From a virus: a DNA stretch of 30,962 bases. The translations under genes and the position numbers were made by a program. Under the pieces are notes generated by a model that was not told where the DNA came from, made no database searches, and saw only the letters and a list, made by a program, of their open reading frames with translations. The stretch lies in UHGV virus genome UHGV-1558343; one strand, given 5' to 3'. Below are positions 3,899 through 30,962 of this stretch, piece after piece (position 1 is the first letter of the stretch; each line of letters starts with the position of its first letter).

Positions 3899-5364
3899 TA
3901 TTTATTTGCCTTGTTTGCTGTGCTTGGGTCTTTCGCTGAAGGTGTCTTTGCAGTACCTTCTCCAGCGGTCTTATAACCATCTCCTGAACGGCTTTGGCTA
4001 TTTGGAGAAAGCTTTTCAGATACTGGCTGAGACTCATCAGCAGGAGGAAGACCAATATGCTCTCTAAGCTTGTTAGATAGCTCTTTGTCAACTTCCAAAG
4101 CACCTACTGCAACAGTCTTCTGGATATAAGAACCAATTGCTTCAAGGTCTGGAGTTTCGATATCATCATAAGTGATTTGTACATGTTCTTCATCGTCCCA
4201 CATATTAAGAGCATAAGTCTGTGCAACTAAATCACGGTTAATTACGTTCTTAATTTGCTTCAGCAGGATGTCTACCGACATCGCTAGTAAGCTTGTCTTA
4301 GAATCTGCAAGAGAGAATGAACCATATTTTGACTGACCCATAGCAAGAATATCTGACATAAATGCCATCATAATCTGCTTGGAATATCTGTCAATAATAG
4401 AGCCTGTATCGTATGCTTTAGCACCCTGTCTAGAAACTAATGAGAACTCGAAAATATCCTCTTTAGTGTCTGGGTCGATATATCTAGGCCAGATTAAACC
4501 TGCTCTGTCATTAGCAATCATATCGTTAACAACAGTTTTGCAGTATTGTACGAAAGCTTTCTTTTCAGGTTCTGCATTTTCATCCAGATAATCTGGTGGT
4601 AAACCAATTTTTGGCATACCTACCAAGTCTCTTGAAACACCGACTGCTTCGTACTCTTCAATCTGAACTTTATACTTCCACGGCACATAGGCATTAAGTA
4701 ATGGTGAACGACCTTCTGGGTTTCCATATTCATCGTCATACTTAAACAGCATGAATTTAGCTCGTGGGAGTTTTCTTGTTAGTGGTCTTTCTCCAAGATT
4801 AATTGCTCCAGCAATATGTGAAACATTTCTCAGATTCTGTCTGACACCAGTAACTTTTCTAAAGTCTTCGTCAAAATACCACTTATCAAGTGTTGATTGG
4901 TTTCTGATTGGTAATTTAGCCCATCCAATTAGACCATCATCAAATTTAGACTGGTACTTTCCTTTTTTACCCTGACGTTTTTTATAAACCTTCTCATTAA
5001 CACAGAACCCATAAGTGCAGAATGACATTACAGAGTTAATAAAATCTGCCCAATCATGCTCCATGTCATCCATTAAAGAATTAAAGAAGTCTGCTCTTTC
5101 AAGCATTTTAGGGTCTTGCTCTTTTCCCTTTGGAGGTACGAATCTCCAGTTGACTTTTCTGACAAACATCTTAATAATATTTACAGATGCTGCTACAGCA
5201 GGGTCACGCATCATTAATTGGAAAGTTTTAATACTTTCAGGGAACCTTAGTGCCTGACGAGGTTCTTCATAGATTCTTCCATTCTTAACCTTCAGACCCA
5301 AAGAACCTACTTCACCCATTCTAAATGGTGGTAAGCTTTCTTGTGTTTCTGTAATATCTGCCAT
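3898..5364 (-). CDS. portal protein
   Basis: about 488 aa ORF directly downstream of terminase large subunit; ORF track starts at a GTG (5373), ATG at 5362-5364 with AGGTGA SD is the likelier start. Confidence 0.7.
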   Translation of the reverse strand: MADITETQESLPPFRMGEVGSLGLKVKNGRIYEEPRQALRFPESIKTFQLMMRDPAVAASVNIIKMFVRKVNWRFVPPKGKEQDPKMLERADFFNSLMDDMEHDWADFINSVMSFCTYGFCVNEKVYKKRQGKKGKYQSKFDDGLIGWAKLPIRNQSTLDKWYFDEDFRKVTGVRQNLRNVSHIAGAINLGERPLTRKLPRAKFMLFKYDDEYGNPEGRSPLLNAYVPWKYKVQIEEYEAVGVSRDLVGMPKIGLPPDYLDENAEPEKKAFVQYCKTVVNDMIANDRAGLIWPRYIDPDTKEDIFEFSLVSRQGAKAYDTGSIIDRYSKQIMMAFMSDILAMGQSKYGSFSLADSKTSLLAMSVDILLKQIKNVINRDLVAQTYALNMWDDEEHVQITYDDIETPDLEAIGSYIQKTVAVGALEVDKELSNKLREHIGLPPADESQPVSEKLSPNSQSRSGDGYKTAGEGTAKTPSAKDPSTANKANK

Positions 5365-5380
5365 TCTTCTCACCTAGCTA

Positions 5381-7601: not shown

Positions 7602-8336
7602 TTATTTCTGTAATGCGCTCTTCATTTCTGGTGTTGCAATAGTGTCAATCACACCAGTTTTACAAGCATCATCAAACCAGTCTGGTAAGATACCTGCTAA
7701 GAACCCATTGATATTCGTTTTAAGGTACTCTGCAATAAGGGCAGCTTCTTCTTCAATCATCTGCACAACTTCATCTGCATAAGCTGTAATCTTCGAAATA
7801 CCTTCATTAATCTTACTAACAGCTTGGTTAGCTAAATCAGAAATAGTATCAAGACCTTTGTCAATAGCATCTTGTAAGTCACTTAATACATCATTAACAC
7901 CATCTAGTGCGCTGTTAATCGTATCCATAGCTTTTTGACCATACTCTGTAGCAACACCCATAATACCACTAAATGGTGTACAGCCAACTTGCTCCCCTGC
8001 TGCACCCATAACATTAGAATAGCCTTTTGCTACCTGCATACGTGAGGAAAACTCATCAATGGACTTTTGACCATAATCTGTCAGTGTCTTAGTAGTTGAT
8101 GTAGTGCTTGTCAGACTCGTTGTAAAGCTGTTAAGCAGAACTGTTGTAAGTCCAGCAGCAACAAGTTTATCTTTTATTGTAGGGTCTGTTACAGAACTAA
8201 TAGAGCTTACAAGTGATGTAGAGGCAGATACGGTTCCACCGAGAACTGCTGCACCAGTAATAAGTGGGTTAGAAAACCCTTTACCGGTTTTTAAGAGATT
8301 AAAAATCTCCTTACCTTGTTCTGTCATCTCTTTCAT
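7602..8336 (-). CDS. hypothetical Ser/Thr-rich protein embedded in tRNA array
   Basis: ORF 7602..8399 in track; first about 20 codons overlap tRNA-Phe on the same strand, so an internal Met start is likelier; exact start uncertain. Confidence 0.45.
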   Translation of the reverse strand: MKEMTEQGKEIFNLLKTGKGFSNPLITGAAVLGGTVSASTSLVSSISSVTDPTIKDKLVAAGLTTVLLNSFTTSLTSTTSTTKTLTDYGQKSIDEFSSRMQVAKGYSNVMGAAGEQVGCTPFSGIMGVATEYGQKAMDTINSALDGVNDVLSDLQDAIDKGLDTISDLANQAVSKINEGISKITAYADEVVQMIEEEAALIAEYLKTNINGFLAGILPDWFDDACKTGVIDTIATPEMKSALQK

Positions 8337-13568: not shown

Positions 13569-14984
13569 TTACCAGATGTAACGGTCAATCATTACTGCTT
13601 TGAGCATTACGCTGATTGGGTCAAACTTCTCACCACCAAGCAGAGCTTTTAAAGTGGCTGGAGAGAAACCAGATACCATTGCTACACCGTTATCCTTAAC
13701 AGATACTTCGCAAGTTCCATTACGGTTTGCTAAGTACCAAAATACTAGTTGTGGCATATCATATCCAGCTTTTTTGTACTTACTCTGAATTGCTTCAAAG
13801 TTTGTACGACCGTTAGCCCCATCAACCTGATTGAACTCCATATCGGAGAAGATGATAAGCTTACTTGGCATATCTTTCTGAGTCAAGTTGTTTCTTTTAC
13901 CTGTCTCAAGAATACGGTCAAAAGCCACTTGTAAGTTAGTTGAGCCATATTCAACGTTTCGCATCACCTGACGATGACGGTTTCGTAAATCACCACTCAG
14001 TTCGATGAAGTGAGGGTTTGTTGAATAAACCATCAACTCATTCTTAAAGCAACCTGTATTGCGTTCTGCTACATACAAGGCAAGTGATACACCAATATCA
14101 AGGGCGGTGATTGAGCCAAGATTCACCCAAGACATTGAGCTTGAAACATCAGTCATACACAAGATGTTTTCACCTTCTGCCATCCAGTTTGGTAGTGCTT
14201 TCCACTGCTCATTGGCAACATCTGCATTACCATGCTTAACAGATTTAATCACATCGTATGGGTAAACAGCACCAGCATTAATCTTAGCCTCACCCTTTGA
14301 TAAGGACTCAATGTAAGCTTTGTAGCGTTCTCCATCTTTACGGTTAAACAGTTTTTGGTAACGTGCAGCAGCAAGTGAAGGAATCTTACTGTAGTCAATC
14401 TTACCAAACTCATTAGCAGAGATTTTTTGCTCAACTGTATCAGATAGTGCAGACAACAGTGTGCGGTACTCTTTCTCGCTTAAGTTTGCAAACTTACAGA
14501 AACGTTTTACAAACTGTTTGTGGCGTGGTTTTACTCGTGGCAACCACTTAGCTGCTAAACCTGCTGTTGCAGGGTCTAGTAATGCTGCTTCTAAATGTTT
14601 GAAGGCATCTGTCTCGAAACGAGTACCTACGAAGATTTTGAAGTCATCAAAACGACCAAGTTCTGCAATCTTATCCATAATGCGAAGAACCTGTGTAGGC
14701 TCTAAAACTTTATCTTCAATCGCTTGAAGTAAAACAGTTCTGAAAGCTTTACGCTCACCCATACCTTCTCGTACATCTCGCATGTGAAGCAAAATACGAA
14801 CTGCAACATCAACATCCTCACGCAAAGCTTTGTAGAACAAGTCTGGTAAGATTTCTACATTGCTACGGCTGGAACCAGCAGCTTTGTAAAAGTCCACAAG
14901 AGCAGACATTGATGAAGTATGGTTTACAGCACCATTTTCAGTTCGACCTGCATGAAGGTGCGCATGTTTAAATAATTCGCTCAT
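13569..14984 (-). CDS. von Willebrand factor A (vWA) domain protein with MIDAS motif, DUF2828-like
   Basis: 471 aa; DVSSS (DxSxS) MIDAS motif in C-terminal half; N-terminal GRTENGA motif; largely helical N-terminal region; family assignment from memory. Confidence 0.65.
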   Translation of the reverse strand: MSELFKHAHLHAGRTENGAVNHTSSMSALVDFYKAAGSSRSNVEILPDLFYKALREDVDVAVRILLHMRDVREGMGERKAFRTVLLQAIEDKVLEPTQVLRIMDKIAELGRFDDFKIFVGTRFETDAFKHLEAALLDPATAGLAAKWLPRVKPRHKQFVKRFCKFANLSEKEYRTLLSALSDTVEQKISANEFGKIDYSKIPSLAAARYQKLFNRKDGERYKAYIESLSKGEAKINAGAVYPYDVIKSVKHGNADVANEQWKALPNWMAEGENILCMTDVSSSMSWVNLGSITALDIGVSLALYVAERNTGCFKNELMVYSTNPHFIELSGDLRNRHRQVMRNVEYGSTNLQVAFDRILETGKRNNLTQKDMPSKLIIFSDMEFNQVDGANGRTNFEAIQSKYKKAGYDMPQLVFWYLANRNGTCEVSVKDNGVAMVSGFSPATLKALLGGEKFDPISVMLKAVMIDRYIW

Positions 14985-22692: not shown

Positions 22693-22721
22693 GAGCCTCC
22701 TTAATTGGGGGGCTTTTTATT
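22693..22721 (+). terminator. rho-independent terminator ending the plus-strand operon
   Basis: GAGCCTCC ... GGGGGGCT stem followed by TTTTTATT. Confidence 0.7.
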
Positions 22722-23354
22722 GAGTAAAATTTACGAAATTTATATTTTTTTATAAAATTTTATCGGTTGTCCCAACCTCTGGGTCACCATCATATGTGAA
22801 CAAAATATCTATCCTTCTTAACAACCTTCTTAATCTTACTCTCTATATATAGTTATATAGTACTATATAGTATCTTAGTAACTATCTAGTGGTCTTAATA
22901 GCCCCTCTGTATAACCCTTCTAACTAGCCCTCTAACAAGCCTTCTAAACACTCTTCTAACAAGCCTTCTTAACAACCTATACAATCACCTTAACCATCCC
23001 TCTACACCCTCTTAGAAGCTCCTATACATCTCTTAATCTCTAGGTTACCTATGATACCCTCTATAGGTGTTCACTAGGTATTACTAAACCTCTATATAGA
23101 CTGTTTTAACAAACTTAACAGGGATATCTTTACAGACCTTATTTCACAAGGTCTAACACGGTACTAACAAGGTATCTTATAAGCCTGTTTCTACCTGTAT
23201 TTTTAAAAGACTGTATAGGTAATTATTCAGAATCTTAAAATTTTTATAAAATAGGACTATCAAGTCATTTTTTAGGGTCTTTGAAGGAACTGAAAAATAT
23301 CTGTCTAGTTGATTCGGTAGAATCTACCTCATGATGTATATCTGCTTGGTAGCC

Positions 23355-23632
23355 CTTAACAGCCCCTTAACACCCCCTTTGCAAAATTTTAAAATATCCT
23401 TAACAATCTCTTAACAGTTCTCACATCTTCTTAACAACTCTTCAAAGGTCTTAACAGATTCTTAACAGAACTAACAAGGCTGTAACAGTTTCTTAACAGT
23501 TGATACATAGTCTTTACAGATGCTTAACAGATGACTAACAAGAGCTAACAAGTTAATTTTTAAGAGTTATTTTGTTAAGATAATTAACAAGTTTCTAACA
23601 AGTGTTTAATCTTTTTAACAAGCTATTAACAT
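23355..23632. repeat. periodic array of at least 17 degenerate TCTTAACAG / CTAACAAG units spaced 10-11 bp
   Basis: runs such as tcttaacagat tcttaacagaa ctaacaaggc tgtaacagtt tcttaacagt; spacing equals one helical turn. Confidence 0.8.
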
Positions 23633-23882
23633 GGTCACTACTTCTTTCTTATCGTTCCCTTTCCTTTCTTAATTGGTATTGTTATGAGGATGCTTCATCC
23701 GAATCATCTACCAATCCCTAGTGATTCTCTAAATAGCCCTCTTAAAAGCTCTCTATAGCTCTTTATAGTCTCTTTTAAGCCTCTTCCTAGTATCTACCCC
23801 CAACTGTACAGATAGCTCTTTATAGGGCTTTACAGGAGCTTTTAAGGCTATGTCAAAGGTTCTTACAAGGCTTTTACGTGGT

Positions 23883-23990
23883 CTTAACAGAGGTTTAACA
23901 AGGGGCTAACAAGTTGCTAACAAGTGCCTTAAAAGCATAACTGTGTAGGGTTTGTTAAGAAATTGTTAAGAAAATGTTAAGGGGGCTAGA
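23883..23990. repeat. second TTAACA(A/G) cluster with inverted-orientation copies
   Basis: cttaacagaggtttaacaaggggctaacaagttgctaacaag followed by gttaagaaattgttaagaaaatgttaag (reverse orientation). Confidence 0.7.
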
Positions 23991-24360
23991 ATTTACGTAA
24001 CTTTTAAGCTACTTTTACGTAACTTTGAAGTAACTTTATAGCCCCTATAACATGCTTTTTAGTGACTAGCAAGGGGGTTGTTTAACCATTCACAAGATAC
24101 TAACCAGCCTATAAGCTTACACCCTTATAAGATTCTTTTAAGTCTCTATAAAGCCCTGTAAAGAGCTTTTTAAGATAGGTTAATGCAATCCCTTAAGTTA
24201 GGTTGATAAGGCTGTTATAGAGCGTTATAGAGCGTTTTAGGGGTTGCCCTTCCCTTTCGGGTTATGGGCTTATATTTAAGTTGATTTGATAAGAGGTTAT
24301 AGAGTAAGCTATAGAGTTATTGCTCTAAATGTCTGGTAAGAGCCTAGAAAGGGATTGTAT

Positions 24361-24390
24361 AGACGTTAAAAAGCCCCATTGAAGGGGCTT
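24361..24390 (-). terminator. hairpin followed by short U-run downstream of the last small minus-strand gene
   Basis: AAGCCCC-ATTGAA-GGGGCTT stem-loop; minus-strand transcript continues TTTAACG. Confidence 0.5.
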
Positions 24391-24443
24391 GTATAGGTTC
24401 TGGGGCTATTTGCCCGTTGCGGCGTCTTGTTAATCAAATAACT

Positions 24444-24620
24444 TTCTTGTAAGACTTGCCGGAAATGATGTAGTTAGTAACTGAATGATTTAACAAGTCT
24501 GTACCAGTGATGACTACCATTTCTTCATTTTTCTTTTCTTCATGCTCTTTTTTCATTTCTTCCCAACGTTTAGCACCAAATTTTGCAACCATACGCTGTT
24601 CAAAATTCATCTTTCAAGTC
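24444..24620 (-). CDS. hypothetical small protein (58 aa)
   Basis: ATG at 24618-24620 right after a type A cassette; translates MNFEQRMVAKFGAKRWEEMKKEHEEKKNEE...; below ORF-track size cutoff. Confidence 0.5.
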
Positions 24621-24726
24621 TCCAGTTTAGGAAGTAGTTTAAGGGCTTTATTTAGTGGGGAAGGTCATTCCCTCCCCGTTGATTAGTAATTTACTTGTTT
24701 TGATAGCTGATTGCAAGTAATTTTTT
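24621..24726 (-). promoter_or_regulatory. type A promoter/stem-loop/RBS cassette
   Basis: minus strand: TTGCAA -35 (24721-24726), 17 bp, TAAATT -10 (24698-24703), GC-rich hairpin GGGGAGGGAATGACCTTCCCC, GGAG SD, ATG. Confidence 0.7.
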
Positions 24727-24845
24727 GAGCTTATCTATAAAGAATCTTTTAAGTGAATCCCTTTTAGATAAACCCCCTCGAACAAAGTTACCAATGTCAA
24801 GGGGTATTGTCAACACTTTTTTAAAAGTTTTTTGTAAGTTATTGA

Positions 24846-25187
24846 TTAACTGATGAATATTTTTTCAGGCTTTACATAGCTGATACGCTGACTTTTTAGC
24901 AGGTCATCCCAGATTAGAGCGGCAATATGAGAGTAACCGGATTCACGTAAGAGCTTCATTGTTCTACTTCTTGTTTCAAATCGGTTTACGTAGTACTCAC
25001 TATTTAAGGTCGTTTTATTCCCTTCGTTATCTGTATGGATAATCTGCATCACTTGAAAGGGGCTTGTATCCTCACCTCTATTCCACTGTTCAAAGTATTT
25101 TAGGCACTGCATAGGTGACATCTTGTCACTAACCTGAGTTGACCAAGATGAATTCTCTTTATCGGTAATTACGGTTACATAAGCCAT
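24846..25187 (-). CDS. hypothetical protein
   Basis: 113 aa ORF with ATG and GGAG SD inside a conserved upstream cassette. Confidence 0.6.
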   Translation of the reverse strand: MAYVTVITDKENSSWSTQVSDKMSPMQCLKYFEQWNRGEDTSPFQVMQIIHTDNEGNKTTLNSEYYVNRFETRSRTMKLLRESGYSHIAALIWDDLLKSQRISYVKPEKIFIS

Positions 25188-29889: not shown

Positions 29890-29967
29890 TTTGGATTCTC
29901 CAGTTTAGGAAGTGGGCTTGCTTGCCCGTCTGATGCAAATATTAGATAACCATACTCAAAGAGTCAA
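29890..29967 (-). promoter_or_regulatory. promoter/hairpin/RBS cassette variant with near-consensus promoter
   Basis: minus strand: TTGACT (29962-29967) - 17 bp - TAATAT (29939-29944), then GGGCAAGCAAGCCC hairpin, CCTAAACTGGAGAATCCAAA ATG. Confidence 0.7.
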
Positions 29968-30139
29968 TAGGAATTTTAAAAATATTTTTGCAAAAAACTG
30001 TAATGAAACGGGCGCACGCGATTACCACAAAACAGAACTACAATCAAGAATTATTTTTCAATCCGCTACAAATTTTTCTGTTGACTTTTATTTCCAGATG
30101 TGGTAGCCTTGTGAGAAATGGCGACATTCCCACCTGCAC

Positions 30140-30330
30140 CCACCTACCTGCACAATTCTAAAATGATTTTTCTTGCCCGACCTGATTTTTCTCTGCACGT
30201 TTTGAAAATGAAAAAGCTCTTTGGAGATTACCTGCACAGTTTGAAAATGAATTTTCTCTTTGGAGTTCAAAATTCTCTCTACAGATTTCTCTACAGAACT
30301 CTACCTGCACAATTCTAAAATGAAAAAGCC
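30140..30330. repeat. cluster of interspersed direct repeats in a 430-bp non-coding gap
   Basis: TACCTGCACA three times, CAATTCTAAAATGA twice, TTGAAAATGAA twice, CTCTTTGGAG twice, TTCTCTACAGA twice. Confidence 0.7.
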
Positions 30331-30395
30331 CTCCTTACCTGAAAATTTACCAGATAAGAAAGGCTTAGTCTATTGTGAATATTCTACAGAGTTTC

Positions 30396-30962
30396 TTAGT
30401 TCTTTGCGTCTAAGAAGGTAACTTCCGGTGAAGAGAAAATTTCCTCAACATCCTCATCATTTCTTGCATAGATATATGTATCTGCATCACTGCCAAATGT
30501 TACTGCAATTCTGTGATTGCTCTTCGACAGGTGGGTAACTAGAGCGTTACTTAGAGACATCTTTTCAACCGGAGGGTTACTTTGATGTATCTTACCTTTT
30601 CTTCGTCTGAAGAGGGTAACTGTATCGTCTGTGAACACTACTACGCCTGCAAAGTATTCTGGCTCACAGTAGTTCTTCCAATCTGAGTGTAACTCGTTGT
30701 ACATCTCTGTCTCGTAGACATATAGGTAAACATCTACGCTCTTCATCACCTGATTAATGATAACTGTGACGGCTTGAGGGTCAAGTCCACCGATACCTGC
30801 ACCAATCATAGGTAAACCAACTTTCTTCAACTGATTAACTTCACAGTATCTGTTAAGTTGTTTCAAAGATGACTCTAAAGCACTGTATCGGGCATCTTTA
30901 CCAGTCTTAAGCTGAGTGTAAAGGTTAGCTATACGGCCTTGTTCTAAACGTGCTACAGAGAA
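30396..30962 (-). CDS. macro-domain (ADP-ribose binding/processing) protein, C-terminal part; N-terminus lies beyond window end
   Basis: frame is open from 30962 with no stop; motif KKVGLPMIGAGIGGLDP resembles the macro-domain C-terminal Gly-rich loop; ORF track lists only 30396..30866 from a TTG. Confidence 0.55.
   Translation of the reverse strand, partial: FSVARLEQGRIANLYTQLKTGKDARYSALESSLKQLNRYCEVNQLKKVGLPMIGAGIGGLDPQAVTVIINQVMKSVDVYLYVYETEMYNELHSDWKNYCEPEYFAGVVVFTDDTVTLFRRRKGKIHQSNPPVEKMSLSNALVTHLSKSNHRIAVTFGSDADTYIYARNDEDVEEIFSSPEVTFLDAKN

Follow-up and report, generated by a model that had tools for sequence, protein, structure and literature searches.

The locus at the right-hand edge of the viral genome UHGV-1558343 raises the question of what its last gene does for the phage and, in particular, whether the encoded protein acts against a host defense that uses ADP-ribose. 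The window, that is, the whole stretch of 30,962 nucleotides that was analyzed, ends inside this gene, which an earlier note, made from the letters alone, had described as coding for a macro-domain protein. To answer the question we compared the fragment with full-length orthologues, with structures and with characterized macro domains, and we weighed the possible substrates against each other.

A conserved gene of Felix O1-like phages

Translation of the reverse complement places the gene on the minus strand, a point left unstated in the earlier note. Positions 30396 to 30962 hold 188 sense codons and a TAA stop codon (30396-30398), corresponding to the 3’ part of a macrodomain gene whose frame continues to the end of the window, as had been read before. 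The orthologues Shy_0012 and mio_17 are 786 nt long and encode 261 amino acids; since the gene of these relatives has 261 codons, 73 N-terminal codons lie beyond the window end, in agreement with the previous statement that the true N-terminus is outside. The fragment is 95% identical to the full-length orthologue P0001, and full-length orthologues with 93-97% identity are found in about 200 phage genomes. The pN/pS ratios of the fragment against two relatives are 0.14 and 0.28, which argues for a functional coding gene under purifying selection. PHROG 335, annotated as “phosphatase”, matches the fragment with E=2.2e-76, and the existing database labels of the family are “phosphatase”, “macro domain-containing protein”, “O-acetyl-ADP-ribose deacetylase” and “Poa1p_like”.

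By its sequence, the window is that of a Felix O1-like myovirus (Felixounavirus). About 250 phage records align with its last 2 kb, most of them with a nucleotide identity of 90-95%, and capsid, protease, portal and terminase genes, as well as 25 tRNA genes, are present elsewhere in it. The gene is conserved, together with its neighborhood, across the Felix O1-like phages (Ounavirinae).

Assignment to the TARG1/DarG/ALC1-like class of macro domains

Residues 1-156 of the full-length protein are a macro domain of the TARG1/DarG/ALC1-like class, according to Pfam, to profile comparisons with the PDB, and to AlphaFold2 modeling combined with Foldseek. The portion inside the window (residues 74-156; 30714..30962, minus strand) comprises the central strands and the long helix of the fold, its second glycine-rich loop, and the helix and strand with which it ends. 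The Pfam Macro family (PF01661) matches the fragment alone with 23.7 bits against a gathering score of 22 (E=4.9e-5) and the full-length orthologue with 32.1 bits over residues 25-141. When a family profile built from 19 members was compared with the PDB, it matched TARG1 (E=3.5e-11), M. tuberculosis DarG (2.8e-9) and T. aquaticus DarG (1e-7). The AlphaFold2 model of P0001 (pLDDT 86, pTM 0.86) has the three-layer alpha/beta/alpha macro fold with two glycine-rich ligand loops; Foldseek aligns it with TARG1 (TM 0.81), DarG (0.75-0.79) and Poa1p (0.73), and it returned 212 PDB matches at E<=1e-3, with macro domains or designed proteins making up all of the 50 that were listed. The earlier recognition of a macro-domain protein is thus supported by a Pfam match above the gathering score and by matches of both profile and fold.

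The two ligand loops are MGAGIA, which lies outside the window, and IGAGIGG, which lies inside it (30777-30815). The latter belongs to the second glycine-rich, diphosphate-binding loop, LPMIGAGIGGLDP (30777..30815, minus strand; fragment residues 50-62), and this is the macro-type loop that had been noticed from the letters. In the alignments it corresponds to MPRIGCGLDRL of TARG1, PPLGVGNGGLDW of M. tuberculosis DarG, MPRIGCGLAGGKW of BT1257 and MPRIGAGIGKGNW of T4 Tk.4. The N-terminal macro motifs, on whose presence in the full-length protein the earlier note had made its assignment depend, are carried by the full-length orthologues as HGCNC and MGAGIA.

With respect to annotated defense systems, DarG is the sole match of the protein among the PADLOC models (47-58 bits) and also the sole match in NCBIfam (NF048014), where the score of 47.6 bits compares with an equivalog cutoff of 250; in both cases only the macro part is covered. 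A MacroD/YmdB type, which the label “ymdB” of one record would imply, was rejected as a loose transfer of annotation: the sequence matches include no YmdB or MacroD, and the top folds are TARG1 and DarG.

A glutamine at the position of the catalytic lysine

The family-invariant motif NLYTQ is encoded at 30912..30926 on the minus strand, with its glutamine codon at 30912-30914. In pairwise and profile alignments this glutamine falls on the catalytic lysine of TARG1 (Lys84), DarG (Lys80) and AdfM (gp104) of phage PhiKZ (Lys78), and TARG1 Asp125 aligns with a glycine of the phage family. Because the positions of Lys84 and Asp125 are occupied by Gln and Gly, the lysine mechanism of TARG1 and DarG is unavailable to the phage protein. 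The catalytic residues had been thought to lie outside the window. This holds for the HGCNC...MGAGIA loop, which contains Asn28 and which we read from the orthologues, and it does not hold for the NLYTQ glutamine; the window itself shows only this glutamine and the Gly loop. The motifs HGCNC, NLYTQ and IGAGIG are invariant among 20 members of the clade, and so are, across the clade, Asn28, Gln90 and the Gly loop.

The same glutamine is found in two cellular proteins, SCO6735 of S. coelicolor (5E3B) and BT1257 of Bacteroides (2FG1/2AFC), which are stand-alone, TARG1-like macro domains in which the Asn and the Gly loop are also conserved. The NMIGQ of BT1257 aligns with NLYTQ and its HxCN with HGCN, and its GxG loop is conserved. 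For SCO6735, Gln85 is essential, the Q85A variant being dead and N27S nearly dead (PMC9411070). The enzyme cleaves the thymidine-ADP-ribose that DarT makes on DNA faster than DarG or TARG1 do and rescues E. coli from DarT, and the paper describes thymidine de-ADP-ribosylation as a unifying function of this macrodomain class (PMC9411070). A glutamine at the lysine position does not equate with inactivity, because SCO6735 has the same residue and is active on thymidine-ADP-ribose. Nor is the missing lysine an argument against a reversal of DarT action, since both SCO6735 and T4 Tk.4 are of the Gln type.

The phage family differs from these two proteins in other respects. The “mobile loop” that follows the glutamine is about 5-6 residues longer in SCO6735 and BT1257, where it carries DNA-binding lysines, and it is short in the phage family; compared with the phage-clade profile, BT1257 has an insertion of 6 residues after the glutamine. 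On account of this short loop we rejected an assignment to the SCO6735 subclass. Furthermore, SCO6735 and BT1257 are cellular and have no C-terminal domain, whereas the phage protein is viral and has one. The clade profile matches SCO6735 and BT1257 with E=1e-16 to 4e-16, and the profile of the stand-alone clade is approximately equidistant from DarG, Poa1p, BT1257, SCO6735 and TARG1 (E=1e-17 to 2e-14), so the NLYTQ clade is best described as a branch of its own within the TARG1/ALC1-like class.

Relatives that act against DarTG2

The closest characterized relative is Tk.4 of phage T4 (155 aa), which BLASTP aligns with residues 3-157 of the orthologue at 35% identity (E=5e-24); the window fragment alone matches it with E=5e-10. 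The two proteins have HGCNC, NLYTQ (Gln, not Lys) and IGAGIG in common, both come from lytic myoviruses, the host of T4 being E. coli, and Tk.4 of phage Phi1 is of the same type. In a 2025 preprint, tk.4 came out as the single T4 gene with conditional essentiality when E. coli K-12 expresses DarTG2, T4 with a clean tk.4 knockout was sensitized to DarTG2, and the product was named AdfM, for anti-DarT factor Macrodomain (bioRxiv 10.1101/2025.11.20.689424). What was shown there is a genetic phenotype, from which the authors inferred the enzymatic removal of ADP-ribose from DNA (bioRxiv 10.1101/2025.11.20.689424). As that system was expressed in E. coli K-12, DarTG2 is carried by the host genus. 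The differences are also clear. Tk.4 is a stand-alone macro domain of 155 aa, and the phage protein, with 261 aa and a separate C-terminal domain of 105 residues, departs from the single-domain architecture of about 150-190 aa. The neighborhoods differ as well, with vs, regB and tk in T4 and with rII...PNK...spanins around the present gene, and of the two proteins it is Tk.4 alone for which the DarTG2 phenotype has been demonstrated.

A second characterized case is gp104 of PhiKZ, also called AdfM, which with its chimallivirus homologues belongs, like the present protein, to the orphan macrodomains of phages with a DarG-like class of fold. In vitro it cleaves off thymine-linked ADP-ribose, and it confers protection from DarTG2 (PMC13309987); an equivalent removal and protection has been described for the NADAR protein AdfN against DarTG1 (PMC11825919). 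The identity between gp104 and the present protein is only 25% (E=5e-5). Moreover, gp104, which is of the Lys type (FPTK, K78) and not of the Gln type found here, enters the phage nucleus by import and lacks a C-terminal domain.

The macrodomain of DarG2 itself (T. aquaticus, 5M31/5M3E; M. tuberculosis, 5M3I) is of the same fold class (TM 0.75-0.79). Its N22 corresponds to Asn28 of the phage protein and the GGLD loop is conserved in both, but its catalytic Lys80 (FPTK) is replaced by the invariant Gln, its DarT-binding C-terminal domain is absent from the phage protein, and the score of the latter is below the equivalog cutoff. There is no darT gene next to the macro gene, whose neighbors are small phage ORFs, spanins, PNK and rIIB. 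Human TARG1/OARD1 (4J5R), which removes thymine-linked ADP-ribose from DNA and Glu/Asp-linked ADP-ribose from protein, is the best single PDB match by both sequence and fold; its Lys84/Asp125 dyad is absent from the phage protein.

The clade to which Tk.4 and the present protein belong is widespread. A tblastn search with the fragment found the macro part in 599 phage records, among them the “Tk.4 phosphatase” of T4-like phages, and the matches span T4-like, Ounavirinae, Acinetobacter, Vibrio, Erwinia and Pseudomonas phages. A scan of species genomes (n=185,579) with one pattern recovered three stand-alone bacterial macro domains, with NLATQ or NLASQ; no toxin neighbor is evident in the ORF listings of two of the bacterial loci. 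Two architectures deserve a separate mention. A metagenomic relative of 339 aa (P0026) is a fusion of an NLYTQ-type macro domain with PF20274 (cREC_REC), a “cyclic-phosphate processing receiver domain”, which hints that some members of the clade act on cyclic-phosphate derivatives of ADP-ribose. In a Microbacterium phage found by tblastn, a related macro domain adjoins an annotated ADP-ribosyltransferase gene, and the two may be a phage-borne pair of writer and eraser.

A probable role in clearing DarT2 modifications from phage DNA

Taken together, these comparisons make it fairly probable that the gene product is an antitoxin-like orphan hydrolase of the AdfM type, which removes from phage DNA the ADP-ribose added by DarT2. 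From them we infer a substrate (thymine-linked ADP-ribose on DNA), a chemistry and a biological role. During infection, the toxin DarT2 of a host with the DarTG2 defense would place ADP-ribose on the N3 of thymine in single-stranded phage DNA; the phage macrodomain, acting as an ADP-ribosylglycohydrolase, would remove it, and replication and packaging could proceed. The chemistry would be water-mediated, with the glutamine positioning the distal ribose as proposed for SCO6735, and would not follow the lysine mechanism. In this scheme the C-terminal domain could hold the enzyme on the DNA or the replisome, or, like the second domain of DarG, it could itself bind DarT2.

Among the possibilities that the earlier note had listed, the reversal of DarT-type DNA ADP-ribosylation is the one best supported, because the homology to Tk.4 and its genetics, the activity of PhiKZ gp104 and the biochemistry of SCO6735 point to it; the 35% identity is to a protein with a DarTG2 phenotype, and DarG is the sole defense system matched. 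Several observations weigh against this reading. The identity to Tk.4 is just 35%, and the phage protein has an extra domain that Tk.4 lacks. The glutamine occurs also in the non-catalytic macrodomain of ALC1 (PMC9411070), and the DNA-contacting mobile loop of SCO6735 is missing. In addition, the N-terminal motif is as near to Poa1p as to any glycohydrolase, and one member of the clade, P0026, is fused to cREC_REC.

Should this assignment be correct, phages of the Felix O1 type come equipped with a means of overcoming DarTG2, and the gene bears on the prediction of host range, because these phages are widely used for the typing of Salmonella and E. coli, for biocontrol and for therapy. The Gln-type, Tk.4-like macrodomain would then be a broad anti-DarT2 family, present in about 600 sequenced phages. 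The macro domain adds a member and not a concept, as T4 Tk.4 and PhiKZ gp104 have already been described, and a search of the literature on Felixounavirus together with DarTG or macro domains found nothing relevant. On the sequence data we regard the gene as a credible but largely expected counter-defense gene, the Ounavirinae version of a Tk.4/AdfM-type macrodomain with a private domain attached to it.

Alternative substrates and functions

An improbable alternative is that the protein answers another ADP-ribose-based defense, either by hydrolyzing or sequestering the Thoeris signals gcADPR and His-ADPR or by reversing the ADP-ribosylation of RNA or protein (CmdT-like, uracil-ADP-ribose). Macro domains do bind His-ADPR in the effectors of type II Thoeris (bioRxiv 10.64898/2026.06.04.730250), and uracil-linked ADP-ribose on RNA is a further modification that TARG1, DarG and SCO6735 reverse (PMC13036486). 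Soluble derivatives of ADP-ribose were put forward by Iyer et al. as what phage macro domains process (PMC9503650), and with its private C-terminal domain the protein could have acquired a different specificity. Nevertheless, PADLOC matches DarG only, with no Thoeris or other defense model, the literature search turned up no phage macrodomain acting on Thoeris signals, and SCO6735 is inactive on 2’-OH- and phosphate-linked ADP-ribose of RNA (PMC11833690).

The database label “phosphatase” implies a different role, that of a small-molecule enzyme of the Poa1p type, which would act not on DNA but as an ADP-ribose-1’’-phosphate phosphatase or an O-acyl-ADP-ribose deacylase, clearing metabolites in connection with RNA repair or NAD turnover. 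Yeast Poa1p (6LFQ/6LFR) is the source of this annotation. It has an almost identical N-terminal HxCNC...GxGIA motif (HSCNCNGSWGGGIA), it likewise has no catalytic lysine, and the clade profile matches it with E=1.4e-17, level with M. tuberculosis DarG. The genomic setting could be read in the same way, since a PNKP-type kinase/phosphatase gene lies about 2-4 kb upstream and is kept even in distant relatives, the phage has the NAD-salvage genes Nampt and Prs, and the clade includes the cREC_REC fusion. Against this, Poa1p has a serine at the key position, where the phage family has the invariant glutamine, and, ahead of the last loop, a large insertion that the phage protein does not have; moreover, T4 Tk.4, the closest characterized relative, has a DarTG2 phenotype. 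Poa1p acts on a by-product of tRNA splicing, but the phage has no annotated enzyme that would produce it: in the annotation of a complete Felixounavirus genome there is no ADP-ribosyltransferase, no Tpt1 (Tpt1/KptA or RNA ligase being required for the formation of ADP-ribose-1’’-phosphate) and no RNA ligase. These absences argue against a role in the self-regulation of the phage and weaken the idea of ADP-ribose-1’’-phosphate as the substrate, and we consider a Poa1p-type function quite improbable.

That the Gln-type pocket is a non-catalytic reader, which only binds ADP-ribose, or DNA or protein modified with it, and leaves activity or interaction to the C-terminal domain, is highly improbable, for although this glutamine is typical of ALC1, which binds without hydrolysis (PMC9411070), and one database name of the family is “high-affinity ADP-ribose binding module”, the Asn28, Gln90 and Gly loop needed for catalysis in SCO6735 are invariant across the clade, and stand-alone members such as T4 Tk.4 protect without a second domain.

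The C-terminal domain

Returning to the removal of DarT2-made ADP-ribose, what distinguishes the present protein from other AdfM-type macrodomains is its C-terminal domain (residues 157-261; 30399..30713, minus strand), which consists of 105 residues folded into one helix, six beta strands and one helix and is confined to this phage family. The earlier note had counted about 130 residues of unknown function after the glycine-rich loop. The actual number is 126, so the count stood, and the size of the additional part did not, given that about 21 of these residues complete the macro fold (to residue 156) and the extra domain has about 105. Modeled alone, the domain reaches a pLDDT of 79; the prediction for the full-length protein places it against the macro domain.

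Searches with the C-terminal domain led back to its own family. Pfam gave no usable match (a PH-domain at E=0.13), phmmer against 1.84 billion representatives gave two matches, both from the family, a profile search of 5.8 billion proteins gave one fragment, the profile found nothing better than E=0.097 in the PDB, and Foldseek against BFVD retrieved the family alone. The domain is confined to the 246-264-aa proteins of Ounavirinae-like phages, where its conservation is weak (P174, G179, Y236), and the distant members of the clade, T4 Tk.4 included, are stand-alone proteins without it. We rejected the possibility of a DNA mimic or a DNA binder, as the net charge varies between -7 and +4 among family members without following a trend. 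The domain is the sole part of the finding that known biology leaves unexplained.

Comparison of near-identical Felixounaviruses revealed that substitutions cluster in the C-terminal domain (residues 158-165, 181-187 and 244-248) and that macro residues 75-156 are almost invariant. Such hot spots would be compatible with a surface caught up in an arms race, which is in keeping with an additional, if unlikely, proposal: that the C-terminal domain adds a second mode of action beyond that of the stand-alone AdfM proteins, making the Ounavirinae protein a two-module counter-defense factor. The second mode might consist of the binding and inhibition of DarT2 (as in DarG, with an unrelated fold), of recruitment to the replisome or to single-stranded DNA, or of an activity against a second, unrelated defense.

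Gene neighborhood and other features of the window

The gene order rIIA - rIIB - transglycosylase - PNKP-like - ... - macro is kept even in relatives at 33-35% identity. A terminator-like hairpin of 17 pairs followed by a T run is located at 30326..30366 on the minus strand, 30 nt past the stop codon; it was recognized by a match to the consensus only, and phage Shy has an equivalent hairpin at the same place after its macro gene. The hairpin at 30326..30366 probably ends the transcription unit of the macro gene. In phage Shy, terminator-like hairpins are found at 7715-7732 and 5334-5375, one of them just upstream of the i-spanin gene, and this arrangement suggests one unit formed by i-spanin, o-spanin, five small ORFs and the macro gene. 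As two hairpins bracket the unit from the spanins to the macro gene, the putative counter-defense gene may be co-transcribed with lysis genes, an arrangement that leaves the early region named in the earlier note no more than a possibility.

In the Salmonella phage HMD-P8, the NAD-salvage genes Prs and Nampt share the strand of the macro gene and lie upstream of it at a distance of about 9 kb. The set comprises a ribose-phosphate pyrophosphokinase, a nicotinamide phosphoribosyltransferase and a 166-aa “NAD synthetase”, that is, an NAD-reconstitution set.

Just downstream of the macro gene there is an intergenic stretch of 500 bp (29890-30395) with three copies of a direct repeat of ~29-34 nt (TACCTGCACAATTCTAAAATGA...) that start at 30145, 30229 and 30302. 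The length of this stretch varies in close relatives; OPT-SAL01, mio and JH2 have a version longer by about 230 bp. A longer region, of about 2.1 kb without any ORF of at least 60 aa, is found at 22700-24850, where the genes change from the plus to the minus strand. It contains dense, short, iterated CTTAACA(G/A) / TCTAACAAG motifs, with spacings of 11-12, 31 and 44 nt, together with inverted copies. No Rfam family was found between 22600 and 30962, and the iteron-like region is a candidate for a replication origin or for an array of regulator-binding sites.

The 25 tRNA genes are located on the minus strand between 7428 and 13403, interspersed with small ORFs, an organization typical of Felix O1-like phages. 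The tRNA cluster is adjoined, also on the minus strand, by a gene (13569-14984) for a protein of 471 aa with the domains DUF2828 and DUF7788, which is labeled “RNA-binding protein” in HMD-P8.
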